This document shows positions 8,170 through 8,325 of a DNA stretch of 41,128 nt, piece after piece. A program made the translations under genes and the position numbers. The notes under the pieces are model-generated. The model was not told the origin of the DNA, did not search any database, and saw nothing but the letters and a program-made list of their open reading frames with translations. How positions within the stretch are numbered: the first letter of the stretch is position 1; each line of letters starts with the position of its first letter. Where the stretch lies: positions 1 through 41,128 of the IMG/VR virus record IMGVR_UViG_2718217884_000003; one strand, given 5' to 3'. The DNA is from a virus. Its lineage: Duplodnaviria > Heunggongvirae > Uroviricota > Caudoviricetes.

Positions 8170-8325
8170 TCAAAGAGACATGCCGATAATGGCATTAACC
8201 ACGCATGACGCCATAAACACGCCGCCAACGATGAAGCTGGCTTGGTTCTTCCTGGTAGCGCCAAGAGTCAACAGAACCACTGAAAGGGCAAAAAAAGGTA
8301 TCGCGATTATGCTGAACGTGTTCAT
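8170..8325 (-). CDS. Small hydrophobic membrane peptide (rex-slot cargo gene 1)
   Basis: 51-aa ORF found by manual translation (below track size cutoff): MNTFSIIAIPFFALSVVLLTLGATRKNQASFIVGGVFMASCVVNAIIGMSL; RBS GAGGT 4 nt upstream; in-frame stop just upstream; about 78 nt downstream of cI. Confidence 0.4.
   Translation of the reverse strand: MNTFSIIAIPFFALSVVLLTLGATRKNQASFIVGGVFMASCVVNAIIGMSL

Follow-up and report, generated by a model that had tools for sequence, protein, structure and literature searches.

A conserved 51-codon gene between the repressor and the changing accessory genes of HK97-like and Rac-like prophages encodes a predicted membrane hairpin protein

The interval between the repressor gene cI and N of lambdoid prophages is a mosaic hotspot, and its genes, e.g. 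rexAB and bstA, share the strong lysogenic repressor promoter (PMC8585504, PMC7067206). The rexA-rexB genes of lambda and bstA of BTP1 are located in this slot on the strand of the repressor, upstream of a shared terminator and of the promoter PL. Further accessory genes of the cI-to-N slot are nun of HK022 and stk of 933W. The subject of the present analysis is a 51-codon open reading frame (ORF) in the same interval of an HK97-like prophage, contained in the IMG/VR record IMGVR_UViG_2718217884_000003. The whole analysed stretch of 41,128 nucleotides (nt) is called the window, its coordinates are used throughout, and the homologous loci compared with it are designated L with a number. The ORF (8170..8325, minus strand) is a genuine, conserved protein-coding gene, referred to below as the small gene, and its 51-aa product, the small protein, reads MNTFSIIAIPFFALSVVLLTLGATRKNQASFIVGGVFMASCVVNAIIGMSL. 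Lysogen-expressed accessory genes behind a repressor are a known kind of gene, and the family found here has not been described previously in the searchable literature.

The cI-to-N interval of the window is the slot occupied by rexA-rexB in lambda, and it still contains the terminator region found in lambda at the rexB 3' end: the lambda sequence matched the first 74 query bases with 93% identity in the region of the terminator at 7039..7074. RexB is an inner-membrane protein, as the small protein is predicted to be. In contrast, RexB has 144 aa and several membrane spans compared with the 51 aa and two helices of the small protein, and RexA and RexB were not turned up in the Pfam, PHROG and PADLOC scans of the latter. 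Unlike cargo of the rexA-rexB type, the small gene is a constant element between repressor and cargo and has stand-alone chromosomal orthologs. The searchable literature contains no earlier remark on its constancy while repressors and cargos vary.

The reading frame starts with ATG at 8325..8323 and ends with TGA at 8172..8170. The evidence for the gene comes from the ORF list, the homologs, purifying selection, the AlphaFold model and the Prokaryotic Genome Annotation Pipeline (PGAP). The Shine-Dalgarno (SD) sequence GAGGT (8334..8330, minus strand) is located 4 nt 5' of the ATG, the same GAGG being kept in the phage clade, and an in-frame TAA is found 4 codons 5' of the start. An earlier note on this DNA, made from the letters of the sequence, had described the ORF directly after cI with the GAGGT and the in-frame stop just upstream, and all of this is present. 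The same note regarded the ORF as unannotated. This is correct for the GenBank and RefSeq records of HK97 and for most E. coli RefSeq genome annotations, all of which lack it, but not for the minority of RefSeq E. coli genomes in which PGAP annotates it as a hypothetical protein, WP_001091427.1. The homologs in other genera are annotated as hypothetical proteins as well. The gene is missing from the record of the model phage HK97, though the lambdoid repressor-to-N interval is among the most studied phage DNA.

The frame was open for 51-54 codons in 23 of the 23 sequences first examined, and over 30 diverged copies, collected from some 20 species of enterobacteria and from prophages of several types, keep it intact at this length. 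The search of 5.8 billion proteins resulted in 36 relatives with 67-98% identity, mostly of exactly 51 aa, from Atlantibacter, Klebsiella, Raoultella, Enterobacter, Kosakonia and Lelliottia. In the scan of one genome per species 21 loci were detected, the most distant of them in Pantoea and Erwinia (47-50% identity). The ratios of nonsynonymous to synonymous substitution rates (dN/dS) against HK97 were 0.04-0.24, the synonymous sites being saturated or nearly so, and the column entropies at codon positions 1, 2 and 3 were 0.66, 0.41 and 1.38, respectively. With 11 phylogenetically independent sister pairs, 235 of 420 synonymous and 152 of 1,231 nonsynonymous sites were changed; the ratio of the changed fractions of nonsynonymous and synonymous sites (pN/pS) was determined to be 0.22 (binomial P = 1.6e-48). 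Conservation climbs at the start codon and falls back to the background within 10-20 nt outside both ends of the ORF. One of the 4-mers AGGA, GGAG or GAGG was present 4-16 nt upstream in 22 of the 29 loci, compared with 5.6% in the background (P = 3e-22). The check proposed in the earlier note, a search for a conserved coding frame at the same position of related prophages, gave a strongly positive result.

The AlphaFold prediction with the family alignment resulted in a helical hairpin with helices at residues 3-25 and 28-50 and a two-residue turn, the mean predicted local distance difference test (pLDDT) score being 89. The two predicted helices are joined by the basic loop T24-R-K-N-Q28. 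The grand average of hydropathy (GRAVY) of the 51-aa protein was 1.42, and charged residues, all basic, were found across 33 sequences almost only at positions 25-28. The hydrophobic two-helix peptide with a single basic loop that had been proposed from the translation is in agreement with the model, in which the loop carries all the charges. Helix 2 extends to residue 50 of 51, leaving one residue and no charged hydrophilic C-terminal tail. T3, F4, I6, P10, V33, G35 and N44 are invariant in the family alignment. Helix 2 holds the polar Asn44 together with a GG/GxxxA motif; such features usually mediate helix-helix contacts and may do so here. According to the positive-inside rule, the basic loop would be cytoplasmic and both termini periplasmic.

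The members of the family are 48-57 aa long and share the pattern M-[NS]-T-F..IAIPFF in helix 1, the basic loop at 24-28 and [IL]VGGVFM..S.VVN..IG in helix 2. The profile search of 1.84 billion representatives gave 18 clusters at 50% identity, nearly all of 48-57 aa, and no link to any larger family. In Pfam, PHROGs, PADLOC and NCBIfam no above-threshold match to the small protein was obtained, and the sub-threshold matches were hydrophobic ones only. The PspC-TM / LiaI-LiaF transmembrane region (PF22571) scored 16.6 bits (E = 0.007) at a gathering cutoff of 27, which most likely reflects a likeness in hydrophobic composition only. In the Pfam scan at E <= 0.1, DUF2721 was likewise below its threshold (13.9 bits, cutoff 28.3), and GhoT_OrtT (PF10753) was not among the matches. 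No match was found in PADLOC-DB v2 for the small protein or for the products of the two genes that follow it in the window, gp49 and gp48. The profile search of PDB sequences revealed no related solved structure, and Foldseek of the confident model against PDB and BFVD gave nothing below E = 0.3, the hits being generic helical hairpins only. In the literature searched, no paper mentions the small protein. Its family is thus an uncharacterised and small one, confined to Enterobacterales.

The order of elements on the minus strand is cI, the small gene, gp49, gp48 and a terminator, followed by a PL-like promoter and N. The lambda-type cI repressor gene (8403..9116; Pfam Peptidase_S24 and HTH_3, annotated in HK97) is separated from the small gene downstream by a 77-nt spacer and is the presumed source of the promoter (PRM/PRE) for the small gene. 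The cargo consists of gp49 (7711..7977, 88 aa, phrog_26809) and gp48 (7073..7723, 216 aa, phrog_5820), both annotated in HK97. The terminator closing the cI operon (7039..7072, hairpin 7047..7070) was recognized by the terminator scan and by its match to lambda, the PL-like promoter (6855..6827) by the promoter scan and a visible lambda-like operator sequence, and N is located at 6195..6578. The small gene belongs to the immunity region: it has cI on one side and PL on the other, is on the strand of the repressor and precedes the operon terminator as well as PL. The stretch 7000-8420 was 99.8% identical to phage HK97 and was found in 52 of 5,426 complete E. coli genomes with 99-100% identity; the small gene itself was at least 99% identical in DNA in all 52 copies.

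Since the PL-like promoter is directed away from the cassette and fires outward, it is unable to transcribe the small gene, and only PRM/PRE or an internal promoter could do so. The scan of the 77-nt spacer between cI and the ORF revealed no promoter-like or terminator-like site. The RNA fold of the region from cI to gp49 was no more structured than the shuffles (z-score +1.3), with no stable structure between cI and the ORF, and no Rfam family matched the small-gene region. In the compact prophage forms the gap between the repressor and the small gene is 9-21 nt, so there is no room for a promoter or terminator. Judged by this arrangement, the small protein is most likely made continuously in lysogens by co-transcription with the repressor, from PRM/PRE in the window.

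The contexts of the phage copies were compared in the homologs of 80-96% identity and in 28 IMG/VR contigs. The small gene was always located directly after a repressor gene, and four unrelated repressor families were found in this position. The gap to the small gene was 77 nt with the lambda-cI-type repressor, 12-21 nt with the Rac-like helix-turn-helix (HTH) repressor, 9-11 nt with the S24 repressor of about 246 aa and 104 nt with the HK225-type S24 repressor. The cargo 3' of the small gene was variable, at least seven sets being counted. They include gp49/gp48; a 331-aa SDH-protease-like protein; a 369-aa ParA-like ATPase; PD-Lambda-2 (PADLOC E = 4e-41 and 1e-47) together with a PD-T4-9_C-like protein; a DUF6932/PDC-M63A protein and its partner of 309 aa; and a gp48-like pair of 98 aa and 275 aa. 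The terminator at 7039-7072 recurs behind other cargo in L032 and L062, and because it recurs behind different cargos, the small gene and the terminator can be regarded as bracketing a swappable cargo slot. In Rac-like prophages, PD-Lambda-2 and its PD-T4-9_C-like third protein were observed immediately behind the small gene (L037, 5233..6587; L038; L066), and the repressor-linked slot is on this ground a defence hotspot.

The earlier note had counted the small gene as part of the cargo, and in the 52 E. coli genomes it indeed co-occurs with gp49/gp48 in every case. This co-occurrence has no independent weight because it belongs to one clonal cassette with at least 99% identity. In Klebsiella prophages, a diverged gp49/gp48 pair (66% identical; L068-L070, 4001..4896) is located 101 nt after the repressor without the small gene, and the small gene in turn is found without gp49/gp48. 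Since each occurs without the other, they are independent of each other, and the candidate system consisting of the small gene, gp49 and gp48 was rejected. The gp49/gp48 pair (phrog_26809/phrog_5820) is an independent, uncharacterised two-gene module. In gp48, a Ser/Thr-rich N-terminus is combined with a coiled-coil region and, towards the C-terminus, a hydrophobic segment; the AlphaFold model of gp49, built from 3 sequences, was unusable (pLDDT 52). A distant version of the pair, the 98-aa and 275-aa one, is located at +377..+1491 in L062.

The diverged copies of the small gene are chromosomal, non-prophage and stand-alone, and many of them have a good SD sequence. The gene is located between a LysE-family gene and pmrD in Atlantibacter and between the RIO1 kinase gene and yceI in Lelliottia. 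Synteny is kept within Atlantibacter, the K. oxytoca group and Superficieibacter and differs between genera. Clustering of the neighbours over 22 loci gave no universal neighbour and none in common with the phage copy. In E. coli no chromosomal copy was found, the prophage copy being the only one. In the tree, the phage copies make up one shallow clade, placed within the greater diversity of the chromosomal copies. One lineage of the family is now present in lambdoid and Rac-like prophages, and capture from the host chromosome is the more likely direction of transfer.

In the K. oxytoca group, the ortholog was observed 21-91 nt downstream of a DinI-family gene, in whose promoter there is a canonical LexA box, CTGTATATAATCACAG (at about 4683..4698 in L018 and about 4613..4628 in L024; L011 has a version with one mismatch). 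The DinI-like neighbour is limited to this group, and LexA boxes were present in only 3 of the 24 chromosomal or unclassified loci. With this box, the small gene may be SOS-induced in the K. oxytoca group, in what is a lineage-specific arrangement. In Raoultella planticola (L039, 2196..5156), the gene starts with TTG, overlaps the end of an 88-aa DUF6500 gene by 4 nt and is part of an island of small-protein genes (GhoT/OrtT, YncL, KPN01023, GnsAB). A 370-bp contig labelled Prolixibacteraceae bacterium JC049 (L021) carries the small gene and a DinI-like fragment which is 100% identical to a K. michiganensis protein over 53 residues; contamination of that assembly with enterobacterial DNA is almost certain.

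The function we propose is that of a non-lethal accessory protein of the lysogen. In these prophages, the small gene trails the repressor gene as a fixed 3' passenger and opens the accessory slot that reaches to N, different defence or accessory cargos being exchanged behind it. Co-transcription with the repressor would lead to continuous production in lysogens, and the protein would be inserted into the inner membrane as a helical hairpin, its basic loop on the cytoplasmic side and its two ends on the periplasmic side. There it would bind or modulate a host inner-membrane component without killing the cell, and the benefit for the lysogen would most plausibly be the exclusion of incoming phage DNA or a changed envelope physiology. 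On balance, such a lysogen-made inner-membrane protein, which contacts a host membrane component and excludes phage DNA or adjusts the envelope, is considered probable. A membrane modulator or a membrane sensor, the latter also named in the earlier note, would be a possible role.

Both sides of this proposal have described counterparts. DicB of Qin, gp15 of HK97 and SieA of P22 are small prophage proteins, some of them in the membrane, which protect the host. DicB and HK97 gp15 block DNA entry at the inner membrane, and exclusion of the DicB/gp15/SieA type acts on the inner-membrane proteins used for DNA injection (10.1101/708461). DicB is, like the small gene, encoded in the immunity region; unlike the small protein it is soluble and acts through MinC. 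The gene of gp15 is located among the tail genes, and none of the three proteins is homologous to the small protein. Of the known systems compared, this one is regarded as the most likely functional model. The chromosomal AcrZ, MgtS, MgrB and CydX are similar to the small protein in being stand-alone, of about 30-50 aa and under purifying selection. Proteins of this class act by binding larger membrane proteins. They differ from the small protein in being mostly single-pass and share no homology with it.

Several points weigh against the proposed function or parts of it. The topology has the positive-inside rule as its sole basis, and co-transcription with cI is derived from the layout and the lambda paradigm. 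The host-to-phage direction, given above as the more likely one, was deduced from a midpoint-rooted tree of 50 residues and from arguments of diversity and synteny, and some of the copies classified as chromosomal, namely those behind the DinI-like gene of the K. oxytoca group, may be leftovers of old prophages. The existence of chromosomal orthologs implies that the function is cell-autonomous, and phages are not necessarily involved in it. The literature holds no report on expression, localisation or phenotype of the small protein, and the neighbour clustering of the 22 loci gave no partner or conserved neighbour hinting at a target.

The earlier note had suggested a toxin or a holin-like effector. 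According to this explanation, the small protein would be a membrane-damaging toxin, similar to type I or type V toxins or to holins, or the killing arm of an abortive-infection system, which depolarises the membrane when it is freed from control. The size, the GRAVY value of 1.42 and the hairpin with two transmembrane helices do resemble GhoT/OrtT (PF10753), Hok, TisB, DinQ and other small toxins, and the slot is the one in which lambda keeps RexB, a membrane component of abortive infection. The conserved Asn44 and GG/GxxxA of helix 2 could support oligomeric pores, the Raoultella copy is located in an island with GhoT/OrtT and GnsAB genes, and the K. oxytoca-group copies follow the LexA-boxed dinI-like gene. 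A parallel to the latter arrangement is provided by the SOS-induced toxins TisB and DinQ. In contrast, the small gene is located, in the compact prophage forms, 9-21 nt behind the repressor with its own SD sequence; because of this position the protein would be made in healthy lysogens, which argues against a toxin. By its layout, it is apparently constitutively co-expressed with the repressor, unlike toxins of the GhoT/Hok/TisB/DinQ type. The 52 E. coli copies, all at least 99% identical in DNA, also speak against a toxin.

The features by which toxins and holins are usually accompanied were looked for as well. Conservation ends at the borders of the ORF, and no conserved fold of an untranslated region, flanking antisense promoter or Rfam family was found, which is in disagreement with a type I toxin; an antisense RNA located wholly within the ORF is possible. 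Neighbour clustering of the 22 loci revealed no conserved antitoxin-like partner, and no toxin or holin family of Pfam, PADLOC or PHROGs, GhoT_OrtT (PF10753) included, matched the protein. Class II holins and pinholins are likewise small phage-encoded proteins with two predicted transmembrane helices; the small protein differs from them in having no charged C-terminal tail, no adjoining endolysin or lysis-cassette context and no PHROG or Pfam holin match. Together with the stand-alone chromosomal orthologs, these results make a toxin or holin-like effector unlikely.

In another explanation, the small protein is the common membrane partner, i.e. an anchor, adaptor or effector, of whichever cargo follows, forming a three-gene system with gp49 and gp48 in the window. 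The small gene always heads the cargo slot and shares the operon with the cargo, it accompanies gp49/gp48 in all 52 E. coli genomes, and gp48 has a hydrophobic C-terminal segment. A sensor coupled to a small transmembrane effector is a common design among defence systems. The double dissociation stands against this role: the small gene precedes at least six unrelated cargos, and the diverged gp49/gp48 follows a repressor without it. Moreover, the PADLOC models of PD-Lambda-2 have no such component, the chromosomal copies stand alone with no conserved neighbour, and the E. coli co-occurrence is that of a single clonal cassette. A dedicated partner of the cargo is thus rather improbable. A broader version, in which a general-purpose module derived from a host stress-response micro-protein was welded to several repressors and serves as adaptor or effector for interchangeable defence cargos, or as a membrane-state sensor feeding back on lysogeny, is given similarly little credence. 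For the stress-response origin, the position behind the SOS-boxed dinI-like gene in the K. oxytoca group is of note.

The gene could also act mainly at the DNA level as a recombination linker, i.e. a conserved flank for cargo swaps through homologous recombination, the protein product being irrelevant in phages. The mosaic breakpoints indeed cluster at both ends of the small gene (-1/-4, -51/-53 and +142 to +238), and the gene and the shared terminator bracket the variable slot. Within the phage clade, however, up to 17 of 38 synonymous sites were changed and the pN/pS values were 0-0.41, and the start codon, length and SD sequence are preserved. Selection acts on the protein and not on the DNA, therefore a purely DNA-level linker is ruled out, and very little weight is left for the explanation as a whole. 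A linker role can exist alongside the protein function, not in its place.

The competing frames 8058..8264 (minus strand) and 8180..8389 (plus strand), pointed out in the earlier note, do exist in the window, but both decay in homologs and are spurious by-products of the real gene. The plus-strand frame stays mostly stop-free because its wobble positions are common with those of the 51-aa frame. Among homologs it was anywhere between 2 and 110 aa long, the position of the start codon differed by locus, and in-frame stops inside the gene shorten it in several species (L019, L023, L024, L028-L030). The pN/pS of this antisense frame was 0.48 compared with 0.30 of the sense frame, which the entropy pattern fits. 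Judged by eye and unscored, an SD-like motif was seen in the listed 20 nt upstream of few antisense-ORF starts. For the frame 8058..8264, nearly all chromosomal homologs have stops within 0-25 codons and no start codon, and most other phage copies contain a shortened version. The idea that one of these frames is the real gene, or that there is no gene here, is thus essentially excluded, the annotation of the plus-strand ORF in the HK225 record notwithstanding.

The HK225 record (L002) annotates the plus-strand genes gp44 and gp45 (3507..3608 and 3652..3852) over this region and omits the conserved minus-strand gene. HK225 gp44, which is located between the small gene and gp49, is noted in the record as having a poor ribosome-binding site. 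HK225 gp45, antisense to the small gene, was rejected as a by-product of the shared wobble positions; judged by its decay in the homologs, it is probably a mis-annotation.

The spacer between cI and the small gene carries a trace of an earlier repressor. The homology shared by HK97 and the prophages with Rac-type repressors sets in 53 nt ahead of the ATG; in these prophages, that point is located within the 3'-terminal part of the repressor gene. Translated on the minus strand, positions 8376..8338 give MGRRIKGDGESK and a stop, which matches the C-terminus of those repressors, ...YMGRRIKGDGESQ, and by translation and alignment this segment corresponds to the last 12 codons and the stop of a Rac-type HTH repressor gene. 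In the donor arrangement, GAGG follows the old repressor stop after 3 nt and the ATG of the small gene after 12 nt. The segment accounts for most of the 77-nt spacer of HK97, which is thus the fossil of a Rac-type repressor C-terminus, and the in-frame stop just upstream of the ORF, mentioned in the earlier note, is the stop codon of the old repressor. It follows from this fossil at the junction that the block in HK97 consisting of the repressor 3' end, the small gene, gp49/gp48 and the terminator was acquired from a Rac-type immunity region. In HK225 (L048), about 25 nt of the 3' end of a lambda-type cI (window 8403..8427) are found behind its own unrelated repressor, at -102..-78 from the ATG. 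The two scars are indicative of successive transfers, first out of a Rac-type immunity region into a phage with lambda immunity (HK97) and then into HK225.

As the one constant element between four repressor families and changing cargo, the small gene is a landmark for finding repressor-linked defence cargo. It adds an uncharacterised family of small proteins to Klebsiella, Atlantibacter, Enterobacter, Pantoea and related genera. Should the function prove ordinary, e.g. a weak effect on phage exclusion or on the envelope, what lasts would be the corrected annotation and a clear case of a small chromosomal gene family with a phage-borne lineage. With 51 codons, one start codon and a lysogen at hand, the gene is a cheap and well-defined target for asking what a lysogen gains from a repressor-linked membrane micro-protein.

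Two minor observations were made in the related prophages. In L049, L054 and L060 (IMG/VR), the small gene is preceded by a 233-aa repressor whose C-terminal domain matches lambda cI and whose N-terminal HTH domain is a different one; the cassette behind this domain-swapped immunity variant is the same. In E. coli TUM9803 (L003, 11..634), a putative nucleotide-modification gene of the Nmad5 family is located left of N in an otherwise identical prophage. The window carries gp45 (5666..6136) at this place, which marks another variable slot.

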